Origin: Clostridia bacterium
GTDB lineage: Bacteria; Bacillota; Clostridia; Christensenellales; Aristaeellaceae
Length of the DNA stretch: 15,239 bases
Direction: 5' to 3'
Assembly: GCA_030526225.1 (NCBI GenBank)
Contig: JAUNDF010000033.1
Span: forward strand, 6,901 to 22,139
The number at the start of each line of letters is the position of its first letter. Position 1 is the first letter of the stretch. The notes under the pieces were generated by a model. The model saw only the letters and a program-made list of their open reading frames with translations. It was not told the origin of the DNA and did no database searches. This document shows, one piece after another, positions 1 through 11,990 of this stretch. The translations under genes were made by a program, and so were the position numbers.

Positions 1-2
1 CC

Positions 3-206
3 CCTGAAGAAACCGCAACCCCTGAAGAAACCACTGCACCCGATGACACTGCCGCACCGGAAGCACCCGCTGCTGTGGTGCTGACCGATGAAGCCACCGG
101 CGTGTCGGTTTCCATCGAAGCAGAGCAGCTGGCAGAAGGCATTGTGCCTGTCCTGTCTGTTGAAGTGGCTGATGTGGAAATTGGGGGGGGCGGAAACCGA
201 ACGTGA
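3..206 (+). CDS. Giant cell-surface adhesin, upstream segment (5'-truncated by window edge; frame +3), terminated prematurely after a G8 tract
   Basis: Frame +3 is open from the window edge: PEETATPEETTAPDDTAAPEAPAAVVLTDEATGVSVSIEAEQLAEGIVPVLSVEVADVEIGGGGNRT*. The VLTDEATG...EGIVPVL motif is the same module start that recurs in frame +1 at 436, 799 and 1198. The frame reaches TGA at 204-206 only because of the 8-G run at 183-190. Confidence 0.7.
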   Translation, partial: PEETATPEETTAPDDTAAPEAPAAVVLTDEATGVSVSIEAEQLAEGIVPVLSVEVADVEIGGGGNRT

Positions 207-1587
207 CAGCCTGACCGGTCTGTCCTATGCAATCTCCCTGAAGGATGAAACCTCCGGTGAACCTGTTGCGGCAGAGGTGACCCTCTCTGTGCCTGTGGGG
301 GATAATCAGCTGCTGCTGGATGAAGAACTGCATGTGGTGGAATTGCCTGCTGCCATCATGCTGCCTGTAACCATTTATATCGTAGATTCTGATAAAACGG
401 CTGATGATGCCGAAGACGAAATCGCCCTGCTTGAAATGACCGACGAGGCCACCGGCCTGACGGCTGCCATCTCTGCCGATGCTCTGGCGGAGGGCATGGT
501 GCCTGTGCTGATGGTGGAGCAGACCGAAATCTACGAAGAGGAGCTGCCCGAGCTTGCAGACCTCTTTGATGGTGCACCTGTCAAGGCTTATGCTTTGGTG
601 GTGACCCTGATGGACGAAGTGACCGGCGAAACCATTGAGACCACGGCGAAGCTGTCACTGCCTGTTGAAGCCGGCACCCATCTGTATTATGCAAGCCTTG
701 CCACGGTGGAGGAGCAGCCCTTTATGGCTACCCTGCCCGTAACGCTGATTGTCGCGGCTGCCGAAGAGGAAGCTGCTGAGGAAGCACAGCCCATCGTATT
801 GACCGATGAAGCCACCGGCTTGACCGTTACCCTTGATGCCGCTGAAGTCGGCGAGGGCATTGTGCCTGTGCTGGCTGTGGAAGACCCCGCCGCTTATGAA
901 GCAAACGAAGAAGCTGATGCTGATACAACGGAAGAGGAAGAAGCACCCGAACAGCAGGTGTCCGGCAGCCTGTCCGGCGAAGCTGTAACGGCTTATTTCG
1001 TGCGCGTGTATGATGAAGCCACCGGCGAAAACCTGACTGTCAATGCGCTGGCAGAAATGCCTGTGGCGGATGATGCTGTGCTGTCCCTGGAGGATGGCAC
1101 GGTGATTACGGAGCAGCCCTTCGCCATCGTTTTGCCCGGCATGCTTTCCATCACCGCCAAGGTGGAGAATGCACAGCCCCAGCCCGCAACCTATGAGCTG
1201 ACCGATGAAGCCACCGGCGTGGTGGTTCGCTTTACGGCGGATGCACTGCCGGAAGGCATTCTGCCCGAGAATGTGGCCGTTACGGCGCAGCAGGTGGAGC
1301 TGGATGAGGACACCATTGCCGCCCTGACCGAGGCCGGCCGCACCATTTCCTATTATGTGGCCTATGATATTACCCTGCTGGACACCGCCACCGGCATGGC
1401 CTTTGAGCCTGTGGCACCCATCAGCGTGACCATGCCTGCCCAGCCGGAGAGCGAGGAGAACCCCCTGACCCTGGCCCATATCGATGACAACAAGACCATC
1501 GAGCAGCTGGATGCCTTTGACGTGGAAGATGGTCAGGTATCCTTCCAGGCGGAATCCTTCTCCGTGTATGTGCTGGCCGAGCAGGGC
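75..1587 (+). repeat. Four divergent tandem protein modules of about 120-135 aa (starts at about 75, 421, 793, 1192) in the adhesin N-terminal region
   Basis: The DNA word (c/t)tgaccgatgaagccaccggc recurs at 81-101, 799-819 and 1198-1218, with a variant accgacgaggccaccggc at 439-456. Each module has the form xLTDEATGxxVxxxAxxLxEG(I/M)(V/L)P + acidic linker + xxAYxxxVxLxDExTGExxxxxAxLxxPV. An 18-nt imperfect tandem (cccctgaagaaacc...) at 1-36 encodes PEETAT/PEETTA. Confidence 0.85.
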
Positions 1588-3936
1588 GAGACTCCGCTGA
1601 GCTATGAGTACAGTGTCCAATGGAGCAACGGCATCAGCGCCAGCGTGGTGGATTACAGCTACCGCGAAGAGAACGGCCGCCAGGTGCTGCATTTCCATCC
1701 GGCAACGAATGGCCCCAAGACTGCCACCCTTAACTTTCAGGTGACGGTGCACGGCTCCGACAACCTTTTTCTGGAGGTTGGCGCGGTGAAGGTGCGCGTG
1801 CCCAAAAACATCTTTACCGACCGGTACGGTACCACCAATGTGCTGGCGGATAATACCGCAAAGCCCGGATATGCTCCCTTTACAAGTTGGCAGCCTTCTC
1901 TTACATGGCAGCTGGTGGAGGCTCCCCAAGTCAGCAGTATTTGCGACTTTAACTATACGGAGGACCCCGCTGACCCCGACTACTACATTGTGACCAATTA
2001 CAAACGCCTGCCTGCCGGTGACAACCTGTTCTCGGTGGATATCGGCTACCGCTTTACCCCTACCCGCATTCAGGGCGGCTATGTGGTATCCGGTACCTAT
2101 GGCACAGCAGATGCCGTGTACGATACGGACAGTCACTTTGTCAAGGAAGTCCCCATCACCCTGACCATCGACAACAGTCAGGTGGATAATACAACGCCTG
2201 TTGTGACAGATACCATCTACAACAAGGTGGAGGTGCATACCCGCTCTGTCACCGCGGAAAGCAATCGCCAGCCCACCAAGTACACGGCCATGGCCGGCAA
2301 CGACCAGAACGGCGGCGTGTACATGGCATGGCAGTCCTCCTGGGGCAGCAAACCTGCCGATGCAGATGACTACTTCTATGTTATCTGGCAGGCAGATTTA
2401 AACCGCTACCATTACATGAGCCAGCCCTATGATATTCAGCTGGGCATGAAGGAAGGCACGCTGGCTGTTACTCCCTACAAGGAGTTTGTCAGCAAGCAGT
2501 ACCGCAATCCCCTGCAGAATGATGCCGGCAATGATATCACCTACAATGCCGAGCTGATTGGCGTAACCTATTACGGAAACGGCACCATAAAGAAAAATGA
2601 CGAAACCGGCGAGTTTGAAATGTACTATGGTCCCGGTTTTTCGGAAGGAGCTACCAGCACTGGCTTAAAAACGAAGGGCTATCAGGGAATTGCTTCCGGC
2701 GATTACCTGAGCCGCTTGTGCAAATTTGCCGCCATTGATGATCAGGATCAGGAGCATCCCGTCTATGAATACAGACGGCAATATACCAACAGTGTTAACT
2801 ACGGCGCTCAAAATTATTTGAGTTACGGCTTTTTGGTGCGCTATCCCAGAACCATGCTGGATGATGTTGACAGAATCTGGGGGACAGATGTGCTGTTGGG
2901 TGACGGCATTAAGCTGAAGCCCCCGGTGCTGACCTGGGAGGAAACCCCTCGTGACGGCGGCGCAAGCCGGAACGGCGAGTTTACCGGCAGCAGCCCAGTA
3001 ACCATTCGCCGGATTGCGAACGGCGGTGCTCCCGGCTTCAGCAAATTTATGTCCGAGAACGTTGCAAATGCTGATAACGGACCTACCAAGGGCGGTCAGG
3101 AAGCGCTGCTGAGAGGACTCACGGTTCACAGAGGCATGTATTACAATGTTGCCTCAAAGCCGCGCATCATGCCCAACTGGAATGCCGAAACACAGGAATA
3201 TTTCTTTGACAGCCCGTGGCGCACCATCATTACGGATGATGTGTCCCAAATGTATCTGCACTCCCGGCTGAAGGGCAGTACCATCAGCAATGCAAGGGCT
3301 GATTATGACAAGACATATGGCGGAAAAATCGCGCCTCCTGAGCAGCTGCAGGAGGGAGATGTTTATTTCTATAAAGTGGTCTTTTCCGGAAGCATTGCTG
3401 AATATGATGCCAGCTTTGCCGGGGGAGACTGGTCAATGGCTGCTGTTGCATCCACTGATTACGCAAAGTTGGCCAAGTATCCCTATGAAATATGGATTCG
3501 CTACGAGGGAACAAGCGAATTTGTGCATTATCAGGATTTGTGGCTTCGTGCAGGGAACAATTGCGGTACAATGGATGTCAAAACGCCTGACGGTACCATT
3601 GTGCAAAAGAACGTATTGCTTTCTGCCGGAACTACACTGCCTGACAAGGTATGCGGTGTAAAGGTGATTCACGACAGCGAATTCCTGAAGAGCACATATT
3701 CCTTCTTGTTTTATGCCCGTCTGCGAGGCACTGAACATGTCAGACAGCGTGTATTGCTGGATAAGGTGAACAGCCAGAATCCTGACATGGATACCTTTGA
3801 CGGAACCTACTGGACAGACTTCGGCAAATATGAAATAACACAGGCAGGCGCCGCACCCTATTACAATTATGAGTATGACAGCCTGGTTACCGGTGTTGCG
3901 GCACGTACCCGCCGATACGACCCCTTGGATGTGTAG
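88..3936 (+). CDS. Giant cell-surface adhesin, middle segment. Real frame +1 coding starts at about 190 after the G8 tract. Contains acidic-linker repeat modules, then a large unique beta-rich region
   Basis: 3.8-kb open frame. Track residues 1-34 (MKPPACRF...KLGG) are just the out-of-frame reading of the frame +3 module. From about 190 the protein (AETERDSLTGLSYAISLKDETSGEPV...) matches the second half of the repeated module. The modules have LTDEATG starts, E/D/A/P-rich linkers and a terminal ...FQAESFSVYVLA motif, typical of Firmicute surface proteins. No start codon, RBS or signal peptide is needed or visible. Ends at TAG 3934-3936. Confidence 0.85.
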   Translation: MKPPACRFPSKQSSWQKALCLSCLLKWLMWKLGGAETERDSLTGLSYAISLKDETSGEPVAAEVTLSVPVGDNQLLLDEELHVVELPAAIMLPVTIYIVDSDKTADDAEDEIALLEMTDEATGLTAAISADALAEGMVPVLMVEQTEIYEEELPELADLFDGAPVKAYALVVTLMDEVTGETIETTAKLSLPVEAGTHLYYASLATVEEQPFMATLPVTLIVAAAEEEAAEEAQPIVLTDEATGLTVTLDAAEVGEGIVPVLAVEDPAAYEANEEADADTTEEEEAPEQQVSGSLSGEAVTAYFVRVYDEATGENLTVNALAEMPVADDAVLSLEDGTVITEQPFAIVLPGMLSITAKVENAQPQPATYELTDEATGVVVRFTADALPEGILPENVAVTAQQVELDEDTIAALTEAGRTISYYVAYDITLLDTATGMAFEPVAPISVTMPAQPESEENPLTLAHIDDNKTIEQLDAFDVEDGQVSFQAESFSVYVLAEQGETPLSYEYSVQWSNGISASVVDYSYREENGRQVLHFHPATNGPKTATLNFQVTVHGSDNLFLEVGAVKVRVPKNIFTDRYGTTNVLADNTAKPGYAPFTSWQPSLTWQLVEAPQVSSICDFNYTEDPADPDYYIVTNYKRLPAGDNLFSVDIGYRFTPTRIQGGYVVSGTYGTADAVYDTDSHFVKEVPITLTIDNSQVDNTTPVVTDTIYNKVEVHTRSVTAESNRQPTKYTAMAGNDQNGGVYMAWQSSWGSKPADADDYFYVIWQADLNRYHYMSQPYDIQLGMKEGTLAVTPYKEFVSKQYRNPLQNDAGNDITYNAELIGVTYYGNGTIKKNDETGEFEMYYGPGFSEGATSTGLKTKGYQGIASGDYLSRLCKFAAIDDQDQEHPVYEYRRQYTNSVNYGAQNYLSYGFLVRYPRTMLDDVDRIWGTDVLLGDGIKLKPPVLTWEETPRDGGASRNGEFTGSSPVTIRRIANGGAPGFSKFMSENVANADNGPTKGGQEALLRGLTVHRGMYYNVASKPRIMPNWNAETQEYFFDSPWRTIITDDVSQMYLHSRLKGSTISNARADYDKTYGGKIAPPEQLQEGDVYFYKVVFSGSIAEYDASFAGGDWSMAAVASTDYAKLAKYPYEIWIRYEGTSEFVHYQDLWLRAGNNCGTMDVKTPDGTIVQKNVLLSAGTTLPDKVCGVKVIHDSEFLKSTYSFLFYARLRGTEHVRQRVLLDKVNSQNPDMDTFDGTYWTDFGKYEITQAGAAPYYNYEYDSLVTGVAARTRRYDPLDV
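183..190 (+). repeat. Homopolymeric G8 tract at the frame +3 to frame +1 junction of the adhesin gene
   Basis: Sequence is att GGGGGGGG cgg. The upstream module is in frame +3 and the downstream continuation is in frame +1. Seven or ten Gs would give one continuous frame. Confidence 0.95.
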
Positions 3937-3966
3937 ACAAGTATTACCAAGACTGTCACCGGTTCA

Positions 3967-6900
3967 GTGGTTGATAACCCGGCAACCGGCATACAGTCGC
4001 AAAATGTAAAATTCTATATCCAGCAGCGTGGCAATACCAGTGTAGCAGATGAAATCATGGACCCGGTTGTGCTGAAGGACGGCATCTTCTACGATTTGTT
4101 GCCCGGCGGCACTGAAGTCGATCCATCTACAGTGCGCGTGATTAACGGCAGTTCCTCAGCCAATGCACTTCCTTCCTCTGCGTACAGCGTATCCTTTGAT
4201 TATGACTGGCAGGCCACCGGCCAAACCATGATGATGGTTGAATTCCATCAGCCGGAGGAAAAACGCGCATGGTCTGCGGTGCGGGAAAATGCTATTCAGA
4301 CTATTCAGGTCACCTACACAATGACCAACAGCTACGATAACATCCGTGACCGCGGCATCAACGTGGTCAATACTGTTGGTTATCTGAACCTGAACGAACA
4401 AAGCATGGTAAATGCCGCTGCCGCATACAAGCTGAACAAAATTACCTTCCGGGATGCTTACCAAAGCCTGTATGATGCTCACCCCAATGATATGCTCTTC
4501 ACGCAGTGTTCCTTCAACTTTAAGCCCGTGGGCGTAAAGCAGACCGGCTACAGCAAGATGGTCAAGTCGGATACGGTTAATGTGTACAGCAGCAAGAGCC
4601 GTGCACTGCCCGGTGACAGCTACCGCTATTGGATTGGCTACACCACCGCCGGCAATACCACCGCCGACCGGATTGTCATCTACGATGAGCTGGAAACCTA
4701 TGTGAACACAGAAAACGGCACCCAAAGCGAATGGCAGGGCGTGCTGACCGGCGTGGATATCGGCGCTATCAAGGGCAAGGTCAGCTACTATGACGAGAGC
4801 GACCCCAATGCCGTGCCCGCTTATCTGGCACCGGTGGTGTATTATTCCACCCAGACCAACCCGGTGCGGAATGTGGATGACAGCTCTGTGTGGACCAGCG
4901 TGCGCCCGGCAAACCTTGCTTCTGTCAAGGCCATTGCCATTGACTGCCGCTACAACAGCGATGGCAGCGAATTCCGCCTTGGCCCCAGCAACACCGGCGA
5001 TGCCTACAACAAGCTGAACATTTACGTTACCATGAAGGCACCCACAGACAGCAATTTGTTCAACAAAACCACCATGAACGAGTCTGTGGTAACCGCCCGC
5101 ACCTACACCGGGTATGTACCCACGGCGGCAGCCGGCACGGAGACACTGTCTGCCCATTGCCAGCTGACACTGGTGGAGCCTGCGCTTTTCCTGCACAAGT
5201 GGCAAGGGAATGCCACATTGCCCACAAATGACCAGCCCAATGCTGACAACAGCGCACCTTGGCGCCAACAGATTTACAACCGCAGCGGCCTTTGGTATCG
5301 CATTCTGATTGCCAACACCGATGCCGAGCTGGAGTATAAACGCGTGGTGCTGGAGGATGATATCCCTGCCGGCATGAGCGTGAACCTGAGTGCCTCCAAG
5401 CAGTACATTTATACGCTGAAGGACCCCAATGTCAGCTACGATACGGGTACCAACCGCACCTACATTGTCAATGGTACTTTCTTGAGTACTGCCAACAGCT
5501 ACCTGGATGCGGAAGTAACGAAAAACGCAGACGGTACACAGCATGTGCGGGTGACCATCAACAAGATGAAGCCCGGTGTGTACTACGATATTCGCCTCAG
5601 CTGCAGCACCGCTTTCTCCTTTACCGACATGACCTATACAAACACGGCAAAGGTGACCTCCGTCAACGGCACTGCGGTAAACAAGGAATCCAATACCGTG
5701 GTCATGGATGGTGCTGTGCGCTATCAGGTGAACTACAACTATATCACCAAGGATGCAGCAAACAAGACCATTGAATACCCGCCGAATGGTCTGTATACCC
5801 CCAAGCCTGCCGCATCTGCCACCACACTGGCCTATGACGATGCCTACACCCTGGCCGATGTCAGCGCTACGGCAGATTACAAGGTCATCAACAAAGTCAA
5901 AACGCCCGGCACATGGCGTTTCCTTGGCTGGTACCGCTCAACTGCTGAAGCACAGGAGGCTTATGCCGCCGGTGCACCCACGACCAAGGCCATCAGCATG
6001 AACAAGGTGGCTGATTTCTTCGACCTGTCTGCTTGTGTTTCCGGTGATTACTATTTCGCCAATACAGGTAATGGAGCGACCAACTTTGCACAGGCCGTCA
6101 ACAACATTGCCGCCATTCAGGATACAGATGCCGGCAAGGTGAAGCTGTACCAGTGGAATGGGGGGGTGGTGACCACCAGTACCACGCTGCCCACACCCTG
6201 GACCTACTACATGCTGCCCGTGTATGGCTGCTACATTTTCGAGCCCACGGTGTACAGCATCAGCTATGTGGTAAACCCGGACAGCACCTGGGGCATTCCC
6301 GCAGGCTCTCCTGCCGTGGTTGATGCCCATACCAACCTTGCCTACCTGAGCAATACCACCCTGAAGGATGCCCTGTCGACCACCGTCACCTACGCCACCT
6401 CTGCCGCCACCGGCACGGATCAGGTGCCCGGCGTGTGGACCTTCACCGGCTGGCAGGATGAAAGCGGCAAGGCTGTGACCGAGGTCAACGGCATCAATCG
6501 CGACTGGACTGTATCCGGTCAGTGGACCTTTACACCCATCACCTACACCCTTGATTATTCCGTCAAGGCTGACCCTGTATGGGGCAAGCCTGCCGCAGAC
6601 AGAACCAAGGCAACCCCCGCACAGGTCACCGGCATCAACTGGGATGGCACAGTCACCCTTGCCGCAGGCCTGACCACCACGGACGGCAATGCGCGCCGCA
6701 GTGATGGTGAAAACGTCCCCGGCGTATGGTCCTTTGTGGGCTGGTCTGCGGATGAAGCCGCACTGGCCGCCGGCACAACCATCACCGCCAGCGAACACAT
6801 CAAGGAAAACCGCACCGTGTACGGCAAGTGGGTCTTTACGCCCACCACCTACAATGTGCATTATCAGGTTGCAGGGGACAGCACCTGGGGCATCCCCGAA

Positions 6901-9648
6901 GGCAATCCTGCTGCCTTTGATGATGCAAGCAATCCCTATGACTGGAAGGCCCGCGTAACCCTTGCCCAAAAGCAGACCACCGCATGGACCACAGTTAGCG
7001 GCGCGGCTGATGCCAAGCCCGGCACATGGGCCTTCTCCGGCTGGTATACCGATGCGGCCTACACCTACAATGCCGCAGATTTCAACATCACCGCAGACAA
7101 AACGCTGTATGGCTACTGGACCTTTACCGGTGATACCTATACGCTGGACTATGCTGTAAAGCCTGATGCTGTCTGGGGCAAGCCCCTTGAAAGCAAGACC
7201 ACGGCAACCCCTGCCAAGGTAACCGATATCGCATGGGACGGCTCTGTAACATTGGCTGCGGGGCTTAAGACCACCAGCGTCACTTCCGTCCGCAGTGACG
7301 GCGAGACAGTCCCCGGCGTATGGTCCTTTGTGGGCTGGGCCGCGGATGAAGCTGCCCTTACCGCCGGCACAACCATTACCGCCAGCGAACACATCAAGGA
7401 AAACCGTACGGTTTACGGTCAGTGGAAGTTCACACCGACCACCTATAACGTAAGCTATCAGGTGGAGGGTGATGCGCTGTACGGCATCCCCGAAGGCAAT
7501 CCCGCTTCCTTTGATGATACCAACAACCCCTACGACTGGAAGGATACCGTAACCGTCGCGCCTCTGCAGACCACTGCATGGACAACCTCCGACGGCACGG
7601 ATGCCGGCATGCCCGGCACCTGGTCCTTCAGCACTGCCTGGACCACAACGGATGCCTCTGTTTCCGGCGGCAGGTTCAGCATCACCAGGGACACTGTCCT
7701 GAAGGGTGCATGGCGCTTTAAGCCGACCCTGGGCAGCGTTAAGATGGATATGGGCGTTGTGGGTGTAACGGCAGACAAGAATCTGGAGTTCACCTACACC
7801 ATCACCCTGACCAGCCCCGTGGCAGGCACCAACCAAACCGGTACGCTGACCCTGCCCGGCAAGAGCGCTGTACCCATGACCTTTGTCCCCAATGGCAAGG
7901 GCGGCAGCGAGGCTGTGGCAACAGTTACCCTGAAGGGCGGCAATACCAAGCCCGCCGTGCTGGATGGCATTCCCGTGGGCACCTTCTGGAAGGCTGAATT
8001 CGTGCCGGATGAAAAGACGGGTCTGTATACCATCACCGGCACCGACAACCTGACCGGTACCATTCTGGCCGGTGAGGAAGCAAAGCTGATTCACTACGAG
8101 CACAGCATTGCCGCGCTGGATATGACCATGAATGTCTACGGCAACCTCTGCAGCGACAAGCATGAATTCACCTATACCATCACCCTGAAGGATGCAAACG
8201 GCAGCCCCGTTTCCGGCAGCTATCCGCTCAAGACCGGCAGCAAGTATCTGCCCGGCACCAGTGCGGCCGACAATCGCCTGACCTTCAAGGATGGCACGGC
8301 AACCGTGGTACTGCGCGACAGCCACAAGGAGCTGGATACGAATGATTACAAGATCATCGTGGATGGCCTGCCTGTGGGCGCAAGCTACACCACCGAATGC
8401 ATCGCCCTCGGTGCGGAAGGCTACTCCACCGCACTGACCTGCGGCAATACGCTCACGCCTGCCGCTGTGGAGCACATTGTGTACAAGCACGCACGCAGAG
8501 GCGGCGATCTGGACATCACCCTGAAGCTGAAGGGCAATGCCATTGAAAAGGACCGTGTCTTCACCTATACCGTAACCCTGAAGGAATCCGACGGCACCCT
8601 GATGAAGAACACGGCGGTGAAGGTGGTTCTGCCCGGCAGCAAAACGGAGACCGAACTGACCACCAACAACAACGGTGAGCTGGTCGTCAGCCTGATGGAC
8701 GGCCAGACGATGACGGTGAAGTATCTGCCTGCAGGTGCTGTGTTCAGCGCAGTCATTACGCAGGACAACAGCAGCCTCGGCTACGCTGTGGAAGCTGCCA
8801 AGCTGAACAACGCCGCGTATGCCGGCACCATCACCGGAACCATTGTGGAGCAGGGCATCCAGCACCTGGTCTATGTCCATCAGCGCAGCAACGGCTATCT
8901 GACCGTTGGCAAAACGGTAGAGTTTGCCGGAAGCAATACTGTACCGGGCCGCACCTTCACCCTGACCATTACACTGAAGGACAAGGACGGCAACAACGTG
9001 ACCGATACCTTCAGCGCGGTGTACAAGCGGCCCAAGCTGACAGACAAAACGAAGGATGTGACCTTTGTTGACGGTGTCGCCGCGGTCAACCTGCACCACA
9101 ACGAAACGGTGACCATCAACAATCTGCCTGTTCTTGCCGCCTATGAGGTGAACGAAACCAATCCCGACGGATACACGGTTTCCTGGGAGAACGAGCGCGG
9201 AACCATTCCCGCAGGCAGCGGCGTGACCGTCAAGTGCATCAACAGTGCCCGGCAGACCTACACAGCCTACACGGTGAAGAAGATCTGGAAGGACAACGAT
9301 GACGAGTTTGAGAAGCGCCCCGACAGCGTGACCATTACGGTAAAGGGCAGCGACGGCTATCGTGCAGAGCTGACACTGACCGAGGACAACGGTTGGCAGG
9401 CCGAAACTGAACAGCTGCCCACCCTGGATGATGACGCCAGACAGATTACCTACTCCTTCGCGGAGGAAAAGGTACCTGCCGGCTATCAGGTCAGCCTGAA
9501 GGTGGAAGGCACAACGATTACGGTCACCAACACGCTGCCCGGTGCAGACAAGCCTGTATCTCCCGAATTCGGTGAAATGCAGATTGAAGACAATACCATT
9601 CCTCTGGGTATGGGCATGAACATGAACGAAGGCGACTGCTTCGAGTAA
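3967..9648 (+). CDS. Giant cell-surface adhesin, distal segment (frame is open from 3937). DUF11-like domains, six SHIRT/Listeria-Bacteroides-repeat-like units, four SpaA/pilin-type domains, one Cna-B domain, unusual ...GDCFE C-terminus
   Basis: Same frame (+1) as 88..3936, separated only by TAG 3934-3936. Read through, the junction is ...RRYDPLDV[TAG]TSITKTVTGSVVDNPATG.... No Shine-Dalgarno sequence lies in the 30 nt before GTG 3967, and the N-terminus (MVDNPATGIQSQ) is not a signal peptide although the protein is clearly extracellular. SITKTVTG..(22 aa)..FYIQQRGNTSVADE(15 aa)..DLLPGGTEVDPSTVRV resembles a DUF11 conserved-repeat domain start. KKIWKDNDDEFEKRPDSVTITVKG...NGWQAE...ITYSFAEEKVPAGYQVS...TVTNT is a classic Cna-B signature. 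TAA at 9646-9648. Confidence 0.88.
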   Translation: MVDNPATGIQSQNVKFYIQQRGNTSVADEIMDPVVLKDGIFYDLLPGGTEVDPSTVRVINGSSSANALPSSAYSVSFDYDWQATGQTMMMVEFHQPEEKRAWSAVRENAIQTIQVTYTMTNSYDNIRDRGINVVNTVGYLNLNEQSMVNAAAAYKLNKITFRDAYQSLYDAHPNDMLFTQCSFNFKPVGVKQTGYSKMVKSDTVNVYSSKSRALPGDSYRYWIGYTTAGNTTADRIVIYDELETYVNTENGTQSEWQGVLTGVDIGAIKGKVSYYDESDPNAVPAYLAPVVYYSTQTNPVRNVDDSSVWTSVRPANLASVKAIAIDCRYNSDGSEFRLGPSNTGDAYNKLNIYVTMKAPTDSNLFNKTTMNESVVTARTYTGYVPTAAAGTETLSAHCQLTLVEPALFLHKWQGNATLPTNDQPNADNSAPWRQQIYNRSGLWYRILIANTDAELEYKRVVLEDDIPAGMSVNLSASKQYIYTLKDPNVSYDTGTNRTYIVNGTFLSTANSYLDAEVTKNADGTQHVRVTINKMKPGVYYDIRLSCSTAFSFTDMTYTNTAKVTSVNGTAVNKESNTVVMDGAVRYQVNYNYITKDAANKTIEYPPNGLYTPKPAASATTLAYDDAYTLADVSATADYKVINKVKTPGTWRFLGWYRSTAEAQEAYAAGAPTTKAISMNKVADFFDLSACVSGDYYFANTGNGATNFAQAVNNIAAIQDTDAGKVKLYQWNGGVVTTSTTLPTPWTYYMLPVYGCYIFEPTVYSISYVVNPDSTWGIPAGSPAVVDAHTNLAYLSNTTLKDALSTTVTYATSAATGTDQVPGVWTFTGWQDESGKAVTEVNGINRDWTVSGQWTFTPITYTLDYSVKADPVWGKPAADRTKATPAQVTGINWDGTVTLAAGLTTTDGNARRSDGENVPGVWSFVGWSADEAALAAGTTITASEHIKENRTVYGKWVFTPTTYNVHYQVAGDSTWGIPEGNPAAFDDASNPYDWKARVTLAQKQTTAWTTVSGAADAKPGTWAFSGWYTDAAYTYNAADFNITADKTLYGYWTFTGDTYTLDYAVKPDAVWGKPLESKTTATPAKVTDIAWDGSVTLAAGLKTTSVTSVRSDGETVPGVWSFVGWAADEAALTAGTTITASEHIKENRTVYGQWKFTPTTYNVSYQVEGDALYGIPEGNPASFDDTNNPYDWKDTVTVAPLQTTAWTTSDGTDAGMPGTWSFSTAWTTTDASVSGGRFSITRDTVLKGAWRFKPTLGSVKMDMGVVGVTADKNLEFTYTITLTSPVAGTNQTGTLTLPGKSAVPMTFVPNGKGGSEAVATVTLKGGNTKPAVLDGIPVGTFWKAEFVPDEKTGLYTITGTDNLTGTILAGEEAKLIHYEHSIAALDMTMNVYGNLCSDKHEFTYTITLKDANGSPVSGSYPLKTGSKYLPGTSAADNRLTFKDGTATVVLRDSHKELDTNDYKIIVDGLPVGASYTTECIALGAEGYSTALTCGNTLTPAAVEHIVYKHARRGGDLDITLKLKGNAIEKDRVFTYTVTLKESDGTLMKNTAVKVVLPGSKTETELTTNNNGELVVSLMDGQTMTVKYLPAGAVFSAVITQDNSSLGYAVEAAKLNNAAYAGTITGTIVEQGIQHLVYVHQRSNGYLTVGKTVEFAGSNTVPGRTFTLTITLKDKDGNNVTDTFSAVYKRPKLTDKTKDVTFVDGVAAVNLHHNETVTINNLPVLAAYEVNETNPDGYTVSWENERGTIPAGSGVTVKCINSARQTYTAYTVKKIWKDNDDEFEKRPDSVTITVKGSDGYRAELTLTEDNGWQAETEQLPTLDDDARQITYSFAEEKVPAGYQVSLKVEGTTITVTNTLPGADKPVSPEFGEMQIEDNTIPLGMGMNMNEGDCFE
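5716..7726 (+). repeat. Six tandem beta-repeat units of about 100 aa, SHIRT-like / Listeria-Bacteroides (Flg_new)-like
   Basis: Each unit begins Y(x)(V/L/I)xYxV and contains PG(T/V)W(x)F(x)GW followed by (V/L)YG(x)W(x)F(T)P. Example: YNVHYQVAGD...KPGTWAFSGWYTDAAYTYNAADFNITADKTLYGYWTFTG. The first unit carries a long insertion. Confidence 0.7.
6541..7728 (+). repeat. Direct tandem duplication of a 594-nt (198-codon, two-domain) unit: copy A 6541-7134, copy B 7135-7728
   Basis: There are identical runs at an exact 594-nt offset. gtccccggcgtatggtcctttgtgggctgg occurs at 6715-6744 and 7309-7338. accgccagcgaacacatcaaggaaaaccg occurs at 6784-6812 and 7378-7406. At protein level, YTLDYSVKADPVWGKP... 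matches YTLDYAVKPDAVWGKP.... Confidence 0.9.
7729..9246 (+). repeat. Four tandem SpaA / Cna-B-like (pilin-type, prealbumin-fold) domains of about 126-132 aa
   Basis: The core (E/V/T)FT(Y/L)T(I/V)TLK(D/E)xxG has its Phe codons at 7789, 8167, 8560 and 8956, giving spacings of 378, 393 and 396 nt. Each is followed by a G(L/I)P(V)G..(Y/W), LPAGAVF or NLPVLAAYEV motif, as in Gram-positive pilin and adhesin stalk domains. Confidence 0.65.
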
Positions 9649-9659
9649 GCAGCTGCGGT

Positions 9660-9687
9660 CCGCGCAGGGGGAATGCCCTCTGCGCGG
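9660..9687 (+). terminator. GC-rich hairpin downstream of the adhesin stop (weak intrinsic terminator or attenuator)
   Basis: CCGCGCAGGGGG (9660-9671), loop aatg, CCCTCTGCGCGG (9676-9687) forms a 12-bp stem with one G-T wobble, 12 nt after TAA. The following sequence gctccttgtcc is not a clean U-tract. Confidence 0.4.
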
Positions 9688-9734
9688 GCTCCTTGTCCCG
9701 ATGAAGACGAAATTGCCGAAAGGAAAATGAAGCG

Positions 9735-11681
9735 ATGAAAAAGCGAATCGGCATCCTTCTTGCAGCAATCCTGCTTCTGGGCTGTCTGCCGGCTTTGGCA
9801 TGGCAGGATGTGCATGTTGAAAAAACAGCGGATAAGCCGCAGTCGCATATAACCGTGGGCAGCACAACCCGTGTGAACGGCATGTTTTTTACCAACCAAT
9901 TCGGCAACAATGCCAGCGATATTGATGTGCGGTCCATGCTGCACGGGTATAATCCCGTTGTGTGGGCATCGCAGGTTGAATTCTCTCTGGATCCGCAGGT
10001 TGTCGCCGACATGCACAAGACAATCAGCACGGACGGCAGCATGACCTATACCATCACCCTGCACAAAGACCTGAAGTGGAATGACGGTACGCCCATTCAT
10101 GCAGCTGACTATGTGTTTGCCTATCTGCTGCAGGCTTCTCCTGAATTCGCCGCGATTGGTGCCGATACGGCAGTGTGGCGGCATATCGTCGGCTACGAAG
10201 AATACGCCAACGGCAAGACTGACAATTTGCAGGGCGTGCGCCTGCTGGATGAGGACCGGTACAGCATCACCGTCAAAGCAGAATATGAGCCGTACTTCTA
10301 CGAATTCAGCTATCTGTCGGTCAATCCTTGCCCGATTGCGGTGATTGCCCCCGGATGCACCGTTGTGGACAGAGCAGCAGGTGCCGCCATTGTGGATGCG
10401 GATAACAACACCGCACAGACTGCTTTTACCGCGCAGCTGCTGGAAAGCACGGTGATGGGCGAAGAAGGCTACATGACCCATCCTGAACTGACCTGCGGCC
10501 CGTATTCGCTGGTTGCCTACGATGCGGCTTCCGGTCAGGTGGAATTTGAACGCAATGTGCTGTACAAGGGCAACTACGAGGGCGCAAAGCCTGCAATCGA
10601 TACGGTAACACTGGTGCCCGTGCTGCAGTCTTCCATGATTGATGACCTTCTGAGCGGGAAGGTTGATTTGCTCAACAAGGTTGCTTCCGAAAACACAATC
10701 AAGCAGGCCCGGAAAACGCTGAACAACAACCGGTTCAAGTTCCAAAGCTATGCCCGGCTTGGCTACGGCTTTGTGGCCATTGCCTGTGAGCAGGGCCCTC
10801 AGCAGTTTGAAAAGGTGCGTCAGGCACTGGCTTGCGTGATTGACAGCAAAGCCTTTGTGAAGAACTATCTTGGCGGCAGCGGCTTGACGGTAAAGGGCTA
10901 TTACGGCATCGGACAATGGATGAATCAGGCCGTGAATGGTTCTTACCGCCCTGAAAACATTGATGAAGCACAGCAAAAGCAGTGGGATGCGCTCAGCCTT
11001 GATGTGCTGGATGCATATGACTATGATGCAGAGCGTGCCCTCAATCTGCTGATTGAGGATGGCTGGGTGCTCAACGCTGACGGCGATGCGTTTGACCCCG
11101 CGAAGGATGACATCCGCTATAAGCAGCTGGAGGACGGCAGCCTGATGCCGCTGACCTTCCGCTTTGCTGTCACAAAGGATAATGCCGCCGCTGCGTATAT
11201 CGTTTCCGGTTTACAAAGTGTTTTGCCGGTGCTTGGTGCGCAGCTGGTGGAGACGGAAATTTCATTCACCGACTTGCTGAAGGCGTATTACCGTGAAGGC
11301 GGAAACCGTTCCTACGATCTTGCATTCATGGCAACCAACTTCATCAGCACCTTTGACCCCTACATGCATTTTGCTTCCGAAGCGGATTACGCCGGTGCCA
11401 TGAACACCAGCGGCATTGATGATGCATAGCTGCGGGCGCTGGCCTGGGAACTGCATACCACGGTGCCCGGTGATGAACTGGGCTACATGAAGCGCTGGAT
11501 TGCGTTCCAAAAGCGGTTTAATCAGGTATTGCCGACGATTCCTGTTTATTCCAACATCTATCAGGATATCCACATTGTCGGCTTGAAGAATTACCGCATC
11601 ACGGCCCAAACCAACTGGCCGGCAGCCCTGCTGTATGCAAATGTGGAGCAGTCTGCAAGCCAAACGCCGGCGATGAATTGA
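9735..11681 (+). CDS. ABC transporter substrate-binding lipoprotein, family 5 (peptide/oligopeptide/nickel type), interrupted by one in-frame TAG at 11427-11429
   Basis: AGGA at 9721-9724 lies 10 nt before the ATG. The signal peptide with lipobox is MKKRIGILLAAILLLGC. SBP_bac_5-like motifs are present: TITLHKDLKWNDGTPIHAADYVFAY, GKVDLLNKV, YGFVAIACEQGP and VRQALACVIDSKAF. After the TAG the same frame continues: LRALAWELHTTVPGDELGYMKRWIAFQKRFNQVLPTIPVYSNIYQDIHIVGLKNYRI.... That is the canonical C-terminal helix plus the (L)P(x)IP(L/V)Y strand of this family. The true stop is TGA at 11679-11681. The track splits this gene into 9735..11429 and 11463..11681, which share a frame. Confidence 0.88.
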
Positions 11682-11697
11682 TTGATGGCTTTACAAG

Positions 11698-11740
11698 AAG
11701 GGCCGCCTGCTGCAGCATGAAACTGTAACAAGCGGCCCTT
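11698..11740. terminator. Hairpin between convergent genes (possible bidirectional terminator)
   Basis: AAGGGCCGC (11698-11706) pairs with GCGGCCCTT (11732-11740) in a perfect 9-bp stem, but the loop is long (25 nt). T-containing tails flank it (tcgctt on plus, cttgtaaag on minus). It lies 17 nt after the SBP stop and 8 nt after the remnant stop. Confidence 0.4.
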
Positions 11741-11747
11741 TCGCTTA

Positions 11748-11990
11748 TCAGATATGAGAAGGAAGGATTTGCTTTGGGTATGCCGAACCGTATACAATAA
11801 TTGTATGGGGCCGCAGCACACGAACCATCTAATTGAGTCCGGTTTCAAACCGTTCGCGATCTTCCAACTTACGCGGACTGCCTCCAACCGTTCCAATTGC
11901 AACGACGCTATGAGTTGGAATGCCTACAAAACAATATCGGTAGCTTTCAGATGTTCCCCAACGAACGTTGTTGATGACGGGAATCTTCCG
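11748..11990 (-). pseudogene. 3' remnant of a DUF4417-like gene (no start codon; contains an in-frame TAG at 11829-11831)
   Basis: The minus-strand frame reads RKIPVINNVRWGTSESYRYCFVGIPTHSVVAIGTVGGSPRKLEDRERFETGLN[TAG]MVRVLRPHTIIVYGSAYPKQILPSHI* followed by TGA TAA. The IPVINNVRWGT...CF.GIP..S.VAIGT...GL..M...L.P.TIIVYGS pattern matches my recollection of DUF4417 family C-terminal halves. This is from memory and unverified. The remnant begins immediately after the flavodoxin stop, in the same frame. Confidence 0.4.

Follow-up and report, generated by a model that had tools for sequence, protein, structure and literature searches.

The stretch of DNA analyzed here (the window; 15,239 nucleotides, positions 6,901 to 22,139 of contig JAUNDF010000033.1 in assembly GCA_030526225.1) carries a giant surface adhesin gene followed by the gene for an OppA-like solute-binding lipoprotein (SBP) of the SBP_bac_5 family, and each of the two is interrupted by an in-frame TAG. 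At the adhesin locus, NCBI annotates two proteins (MDO4484017.1 and MDO4484018.1) of a "Clostridia bacterium" metagenome-assembled genome (MAG). On re-reading the sequence, we found the two open reading frames (ORFs) 88..3936 and 3967..9648 both in frame 1 with a single TAG (3934-3936) between them, and translation across it gives ...ARTRRYDPLDV*TSITKTVTGSVVDNPATG... (asterisk, TAG), as the initial annotation had reported. That annotation had further noted that the 30 nt 5′ of the GTG at 3967 (ACAAGTATTACCAAGACTGTCACCGGTTCA) lack a Shine-Dalgarno-like purine run and that the product of ORF 3967..9648 has no signal peptide even though it is made of stalk domains; both statements hold. A scan of positions 3600-4300 found no promoter-like or terminator-like sites. 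All 1,903 codons after the adhesin TAG are open, and the two alternative frames contain 89 and 69 stops.

The true start of the adhesin lies about 805 bp to the left of the window, at position 6191 of a Logan assembly (L001, run SRR24915835) that reaches 6,995 bp further left than the window does. There, AGGGAGG precedes an ATG and the product begins with the signal peptide MMAKEKTKRLVALVMATMMLMSSAGIGTLAEE, which was judged by eye from the sequence, without a predictor. The adhesin is in frame 3 where the window begins and moves to frame 1 at a run of eight G residues (G8, 183-190), and therefore the ATG at 88 is, by its reading frame, an artefact and not the adhesin start. The frame 3 stretch (PEETATPEE...VVLTDEATGVSVSIEAEQLAEGIVPVLSVEVADVEI) is the first half of a repeat unit seen three more times in ORF1. 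Thus, the description of the gene as split only by the TAG has to be amended: the G8 run breaks it as well, by a +1 frameshift. Once the frame is restored and the TAG is taken as sense, the adhesin would comprise 3,483 residues. Its middle segment is homologous to the head region of Gram-positive surface proteins of 1,500 to 4,000 residues, and Pfam matches in the stalk include SHIRT (4.4e-15), four copies of DUF7601 (6.9e-43), and Cna_B (5.4e-16). DUF11, a domain of which type had been thought to begin at the junction, is absent from the Pfam matches, and what the homologues share there is a T-x-[IL]-x-K-x-V segment.

In overall design, the adhesin resembles known giant Gram-positive stalk adhesins, with a signal peptide, a large nonrepetitive head homologous to that of 250+ such proteins, and a SHIRT/DUF7601/Cna_B stalk. 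It differs from them in the G8 frameshift inside it and in its C-terminus, which ends IPLGMGMNMNEGDCFE and shows no LPxTG motif, membrane span, or charged or basic tail, whereas in nearly all homologues an LPKTGD-type motif and a membrane span close the protein. The adhesin C-terminus may hold a different, uncharacterised anchoring or processing signal. Positions 9535-9648 of the window encode this end (...TNTLPGADKPVSPEFGEMQIEDNTIPLGMGMNMNEGDCFE, followed by TAA) and have no match in Pfam or NCBIfam.

We queried 1.84 billion representative sequences exhaustively with phmmer, using the 450 residues that flank the adhesin TAG on either side. The search returned 251 matches at E ≤ 1e-3, dozens of which (1,500 to 4,000 residues long) align unbroken across the TAG; these homologues have the make-up typical of Gram-positive surface proteins, namely a signal peptide, a head, stalk repeats, and usually LPxTG. 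At the TAG column, all 28 of the 28 aligned distant homologues have a sense residue and no gap (T7, S6, N4, D4, G2, Y2, R2, E, V), and the alignment gives no sign of two genes; homologue P0011, for example, reads MTF-D-TILSKTVKGSVQDTPANGIQTRSV, with a recognizable T-x-[IL]-x-K-x-V-type segment. The homologues are continuous, and none has a start or signal peptide of its own at this point, which bears out the earlier proposal that the ORFs derive from one ancestral gene and that ORF2 is unable to stand alone. Judged by these alignments, the two adhesin ORFs are one gene. Word-indexed homologue searches with junction queries recovered ORF1 of the source itself, one fragment, and nothing else; protein-pattern and degenerate-DNA scans of genome and metagenome contigs found no further copy of the adhesin locus; and sequence searches of the PDB, with 450 residues from either side of the junction as queries, yielded no useful match. 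Some homologues appeared to begin shortly past the junction and were examined as candidates for further split adhesins. Two of these proved uninformative: P0100 starts at a scaffold N-gap, and P0036 is open to the contig edge. A third distant homologue, P0110, chosen because of where its gene call starts, is split into calls of 1,548 and 1,005 residues (L005 5200-5300, GCA_020625875.1; L006 5695-5795, SRR10765506). This split results from a frameshift that precedes the equivalent of the window TAG by about 110 codons, is the same in the two assemblies, and does not lie at a long homopolymer.

The two annotated proteins, and the origin of the sequence in a MAG, would also fit an assembly or sequencing artefact, or a true pair of genes with ORF2 re-initiated at GTG 3967 or ATG 4057. 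We give this account hardly any credence. The NCBI MAG contig and the Logan assembly of SRR24915835 are independent of each other and agree base for base at both the G8 run and the adhesin TAG. Over 12,595 shared bases they differ only at 2487, by a synonymous TTT/TTC (Phe) change in the adhesin that suggests a strain-level polymorphism in the sample. Damage of the C-to-T kind (deamination) would create TAA and TGA as well as TAG, and neither is seen. Two separate genes are argued against by the missing Shine-Dalgarno sequence, promoter, and ORF2 signal peptide, and by the continuity of every homologue.

The closest relatives of the adhesin, about 50% identical, are present only as short Logan contigs from other Sequence Read Archive (SRA) runs, and they carry in-frame TAGs of their own. 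Contig L002 (SRR23311176) has two: one (...LDALSYSTTL*KNPYGSLTDDP...) lies four codons from the TAG of the window adhesin, and the other follows 285 codons later. Opposite the window's adhesin TAG itself, L002 has Ser. The overlapping contigs L007 and L008 (SRR24145991) contain four in-frame TAGs in 907 codons and read through the position of the window's TAG with Thr (...RLDPLHV-T-TTLEKNP...; ...RLDPLHVTTTLEKNP...). All three contigs have zero in-frame TAA or TGA codons and zero frameshifts, while TGA and TAA abound in their other frames. Identity between the window and L007/L008 is 44% upstream of the adhesin TAG (113 positions) and 48% downstream (756 positions). TAG positions thus differ between adhesin orthologues, and conservation persists after each TAG.

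This scatter bears on the idea that the adhesin TAG is a site of programmed read-through, which would control how much short secreted head fragment is made relative to full-length anchored adhesin. The TAG does stand at a module boundary, just before the T-x-[IL]-x-K-x-V segment, and in L002, the closest relative, a TAG is found within four codons of it. The position is not conserved, however, being Thr in L007, four codons off in L002, and scattered elsewhere; downstream of the TAG, RNA folding is no stronger than in shuffled sequence (z = −0.92); and cytoplasmic and housekeeping genes have internal TAGs too, for which a site-specific adhesin switch cannot account. Site-specific read-through is already largely refuted by the scattered positions, and we regard it as very improbable.

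The SBP gene of the window repeats the pattern in an unrelated protein. The stretch after its TAG matches residues 506-559 of the 562 in a solved OppA structure (PDB 9p48_A; 28 bits, i-E 6.5e-6), and three orthologues run through the TAG, with 52% (P0152), 49% (P0153), and 32% (P0154) identity to the extension and with Gln, Glu, and Ser, respectively, opposite the TAG itself. By this homology the SBP TAG is internal and not a stop. With the gene extended to its TGA, about 310 bp (11682-11990) separate it from the convergent flavodoxin gene, in place of about 560 bp; annotation with translation table 11 had inflated the apparent noncoding space.

Internal TAGs extend to further genes in further relatives. 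In L009 (SRR21150851, 4.8 kb), the genes were re-called with TAG as a sense codon and were then coherent; four of its five genes carry internal TAGs, in two cases inside profile matches (Table 1). Among the relatives, SBP genes likewise have profile matches on both sides of the TAG. In L010 (SRR21150933), the SBP gene has a TAG at ...GPQ*FQKVRQAL..., opposite a Gln (CAG) in both the window and L009, and genes end in TGA and TAA. A distant SBP relative, L011, has no internal TAG and genes that end in TGA, and so gives no marker for the boundary of the clade.

Table 1. Features of the adhesin and SBP genes in the window and genes of the related contig L009
Sequence	Feature	Coordinates	Strand	In-frame TAGs	Stop	Remarks
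Window	Adhesin N-terminal segment, frame 3	3..182	+			PEETATPEE...VVLTDEATGVSVSIEAEQLAEGIVPVLSVEVADVEIGG; continues from upstream start
Window	G8 homopolymer, frame 3 to frame 1 (+1)	183..190	+			Sequence TTGGGGGGGGCGG; frame 3 stops at TGA 204-206
Window	Adhesin middle segment, frame 1	190..3933	+			Repeat units, then large head region without Pfam match
Window	In-frame TAG inside adhesin gene	3934..3936	+	1		Probably translated, from homologues opposite and conservation on either side
Window	Adhesin C-terminal 1,903 codons	3937..9648	+		TAA	Rest of head, SHIRT x2, DUF7601 x4, Cna_B
Window	SBP_bac_5 (OppA-like) solute-binding lipoprotein gene	9735..11681	+		TGA (11679-11681)	648 codons; called as 564 residues, to the TAG
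Window	Second in-frame TAG of the window, inside SBP gene	11427..11429	+	1		83 codons more, then TGA
L009	SBP			1	TGA	TAG opposite window's Ala
L009	FliB-like methylase	1539-2348		2	TGA	TAGs outside profile match
L009	Nitroreductase			1 (residue 18)	TAA	Inside PF00881 match 8-62
L009	NamZ			0	TAA	
L009	YgiQ C-terminus			1 (residue 152)	TGA	Inside DUF3362 match 59-182

In total, we counted 14 in-frame TAGs (window, 2; L002, 2; L007/L008, 4; L009, 5; L010, 1) and no in-frame TAA or TGA, a count that covers the tallied gene sets plus L008 and the YgiQ fragment, which were read separately. The 12 TAGs of the relatives, which come from five other SRA runs, fall in adhesin, SBP, nitroreductase, YgiQ, and FliB-like genes, and none of these relatives shows a frameshift. 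Random single-step nonsense mutation at this codon usage is expected to yield TAG in a share of 0.53 to 0.58, which puts the probability of 14 of 14 at about 1.5e-4 to 5e-4. At genuine gene ends, by comparison, TAG occurs 0 times in 17 (10 on the window contig, 5 on L009, 2 on L010), with P of about 0.02 in this small sample if the usual TAG share is 20%; the true stops on the 22-kb window contig are six TGA and four TAA. Treating TAG as sense creates no large out-of-frame overlaps through read-through. Internal TAGs flanked on both sides by homology occur in several unrelated genes of several related organisms, and no TAG stands at a genuine end.

The same figures allow the standard code to be weighed, under which the adhesin and SBP genes would both be recent nonsense pseudogenes and the adhesin would be frameshifted besides. 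A doubly lesioned pseudogene (frameshift plus nonsense) was the explanation favored early for the adhesin, and it was dropped as first the closest relatives and then the SBP gene showed interruptions by TAG only. The G8 frameshift is indeed an independent disabling lesion, giant adhesin genes are broken elsewhere too (L005/L006), and TAG, as the commonest single-step nonsense product here (53 to 58%), makes two of two in the window unremarkable. The standard code nevertheless requires two TAG-truncated genes among 10 on one contig, with no decay in the 1,903 + 83 downstream codons despite the 69 to 89 stops that alternative frames hold, and with constraint retained after the TAG (48% identity downstream against 44% upstream) and only TAG in frame. 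It would further need the TAG-only pattern (14 of 14 internal, 0 of 17 at ends) to have arisen independently in four related organisms and five gene families. We consider it improbable, if less so than programmed read-through.

Because a second gene in the window and genes in its relatives also carry internal TAGs, the explanation points to decoding by the lineage and not to a lesion or a site-specific signal in the adhesin. For the window itself, the argument consists of two validated internal TAGs, the 1,903 + 83 intact codons downstream of them, and the pattern across the clade. We estimate a probability of roughly 0.75 that the Clostridia lineage represented by the window decodes TAG as an amino acid genome-wide and terminates only at TGA and TAA. 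Under this reading, the adhesin ORFs would be one gene translated through the TAG at 3934-3936, and the neighboring SBP gene would likewise be translated through the TAG at 11427-11429, with ribosomes inserting an amino acid at each. That TAG is translated in the window's own organism is at least as probable, and perhaps slightly more so. The setting is chromosomal, with MatE, GH3, APH kinase, flavodoxin, DUF3793, AraC, and TetR genes as neighbors; megablast against 50,697 phage records gave no match, and there are no phage genes among the neighbors. Genes have bacterial Shine-Dalgarno sites and signal-peptide features, in keeping with the annotation of the source as a Clostridia bacterium MAG, and the genome is not AT-rich (about 54% GC).

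Several observations weigh against lineage-wide decoding of TAG. The window by itself is thin, offering 2 internal TAGs in about 7,000 codons together with 10 gene ends, and two of two interruptions being TAG has a probability of about 0.3. The argument depends on relatives with no more than about 50% identity in the adhesin and SBP. Two of the L009 TAGs, those in the Cys-rich FliB-like flagellin lysine-N-methylase, are less securely internal, since the NF038110 match ends at residue 139 and leaves the C-terminal two thirds of the gene uncovered. No tRNA genes were found on the window, L001, L002, L007, L008, or L009. The real G8 frameshift shows that this same adhesin gene can carry a disabling lesion, and the distant homologue in L005/L006 is also split by a frameshift. 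Finally, a crude substitution score over the TAG columns does not separate Glu, Thr, Gln, and Ser as the residue inserted.

In close orthologues, the residues opposite the TAGs are S/T, T/E, E/G, V, E/E, T, Q/E/S, A, and Q/Q, with N opposite a gap in one further case; the E/G column was read by eye, as the L002 tail is misaligned in the alignment. The crude BLOSUM sum over these columns is highest for Glu (8.3), followed by Thr (6.2), Gln (5.3), and Ser (4.3), and is negative for Lys (−2.3). Neither Lys nor Arg occurs at a TAG column in any close orthologue, and the L007 TAG has Glu opposite it twice (E and E). The conserved CAG-to-TAG column in L010 and the absence of Lys and Arg favor Gln or Glu over Lys-like pyrrolysine (Pyl), and the residue inserted at TAG is most likely Gln or Glu. 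Insertion of either would call for a CUA-anticodon tRNA and for release factor 1 (RF1) to have been lost or weakened.

Bacteria known to use Pyl are mostly Clostridia, and this counts for the alternative that TAG is decoded genome-wide as Pyl through pylT, pylS, and pylBCD, as a bacterial counterpart of the archaeal Code 34. The TAG positions are also variable and probably surface-exposed, where a bulky residue could be tolerated, and genome-wide TAG-to-Pyl decoding in archaea was recognized by the same signature of two-sided homology and no gene ends in TAG (bioRxiv 10.1101/2024.09.30.615893). Set against this are the lack of Lys or Arg opposite any TAG in close orthologues, one TAG in place of a Gln that two orthologues conserve (as CAG, which one transition turns into TAG), and several others in place of Glu. 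No pyl gene or methyltransferase is visible on the approximately 30 kb of clade sequence seen, and the archaeal study, which links the emergence of the code to methylamine methanogenesis, says that it "is not observed in bacteria" (bioRxiv 10.1101/2024.09.30.615893). We consider Pyl unlikely, though the least unlikely of the alternatives.

Among recodings already described, lineage-wide TAG decoding in the window's clade is closest in form to Code 34 (Kivenson et al., bioRxiv 10.1101/2024.09.30.615893), in which a prokaryotic chromosome likewise carries TAG inside many ordinary genes ("Category 1") and at the end of none, with a TAG density that varies between related genomes. Unlike the present case, Code 34 is archaeal and bound to Pyl machinery and methylamine methanogenesis; here, the source is a Clostridia bacterium, and Gln or Glu is favored over a Lys-like residue. 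Gut phages with Code 15-type TAG-to-Gln recoding (Borges et al., bioRxiv 10.1101/2021.08.26.457843; Peters et al. 2022, PMC9523058) are similar in that TAG is sense and probably Gln, in their gut-type, Firmicutes-associated setting, and in that gene callers split their genes. Those phages, however, infect hosts with the standard code, bring their own suppressor tRNA, and concentrate recoding in late genes, whereas the context in the window's lineage is chromosomal (transporters, regulators, nitroreductase, YgiQ, NamZ) and free of phage genes. The TAG columns show Q/Q at L010 and Q/E/S at the window's SBP, with E, T, S, V, A, and G elsewhere. The bacterial translation tables 4 (UGA to Trp) and 25 (UGA to Gly) also represent lineage-wide stop-to-sense changes in which the codon disappears from gene ends and loss of the cognate release factor is expected, but they concern UGA and release factor 2, not UAG and RF1, and the genome here has a GC content of about 54%.

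The authors of the Code 34 study note that TAG otherwise serves bacteria as a stop and that their code "is not observed in bacteria" (bioRxiv 10.1101/2024.09.30.615893). All known bacterial code changes reassign UGA according to Shulgina and Eddy (2021), and a 2026 paper on UGA-to-Trp reassignment in Actinomycetota frames bacterial stop reassignment only in terms of UGA. The gTranslate preprint considers only tables 4, 11, and 25 for prokaryotes, and a 2025 survey reports scattered prfA pseudogenes only and no clade without RF1. Reassignment of UAG is documented for phages, eukaryotes, and, since a 2024 preprint, archaea (as Pyl). Chromosomal reassignment of UAG in bacteria is unreported in the literature we searched, and subscription-only journals may hold a report. 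A search of papers by run accession returned none. We think it probable, if a little less so than lineage-wide decoding as such, that UAG has been reassigned from stop to amino acid across the chromosome of an uncultured Clostridia lineage represented in six SRA samples, to Gln or Glu (a code known elsewhere in gut phages and some eukaryotes) or as a bacterial case of all TAG read as Pyl, and that this would be the first bacterial UAG reassignment described.

If so, the clade would represent a new bacterial genetic code in a mid-GC Clostridia lineage of free-living type, with a bearing on how codes change (the loss of RF1 and the origin of suppressor tRNAs) and on the relation between TAG-recoded gut phages and their hosts, as the lineage would supply possible hosts that share the phage code. 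It would also mean that annotation with table 11 mis-calls such genomes, as when the 3,483-codon adhesin becomes two NCBI proteins and the SBP loses its last 84 residues. Since such mis-calls split and truncate genes, estimates of completeness, pseudogene counts, and protein databases would be wrong for the clade.

How TAG is decoded has no bearing on the G8 frameshift: in the sampled allele the frame shifts at 183-190, and translation would end at the TGA of 204-206 even if TAG were sense. Either G7 or G10 at this position would give one continuous frame. With G7 in place of G8, the reconstructed first repeat unit aligns end to end with the three intact later units (35 to 40% identity), and therefore the frameshift lies inside a repeat unit. 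Downstream RNA structure shows nothing unusual (z = +1.28). The classic setting for slipped-strand phase variation is a surface-adhesin gene with a G tract in its 5′ part, and the likeliest meaning of the G8 run is a tract of this kind; a fixed inactivating mutation and low-level rescue by slippage are equally compatible with the data. As in homopolymer phase variation, the run sits early in the coding sequence of a surface adhesin, and gain or loss of a single base switches the frame. Unlike it, the two assemblies both have G8, a single allele, with no length variation seen.

A second long G run, G7 at 6160-6166, lies in frame in the stalk region of the adhesin and is a further potential slippage site. 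The N-terminal part of the gene also contains short tandem repeat arrays with periods of 15, 18, and 54 nt (window 1-60 and L001 6312-7027), which encode linkers rich in Pro, Glu, Thr, and Ala (PEETVT, TEAPEE) and are likely to vary in length. Three long ORFs run antisense to the adhesin on the reverse strand (5938-9867, 655-2238, and 4156-5544, of 1,309, 527, and 462 residues, respectively); these are most likely noncoding shadow ORFs of a stop-poor frame.

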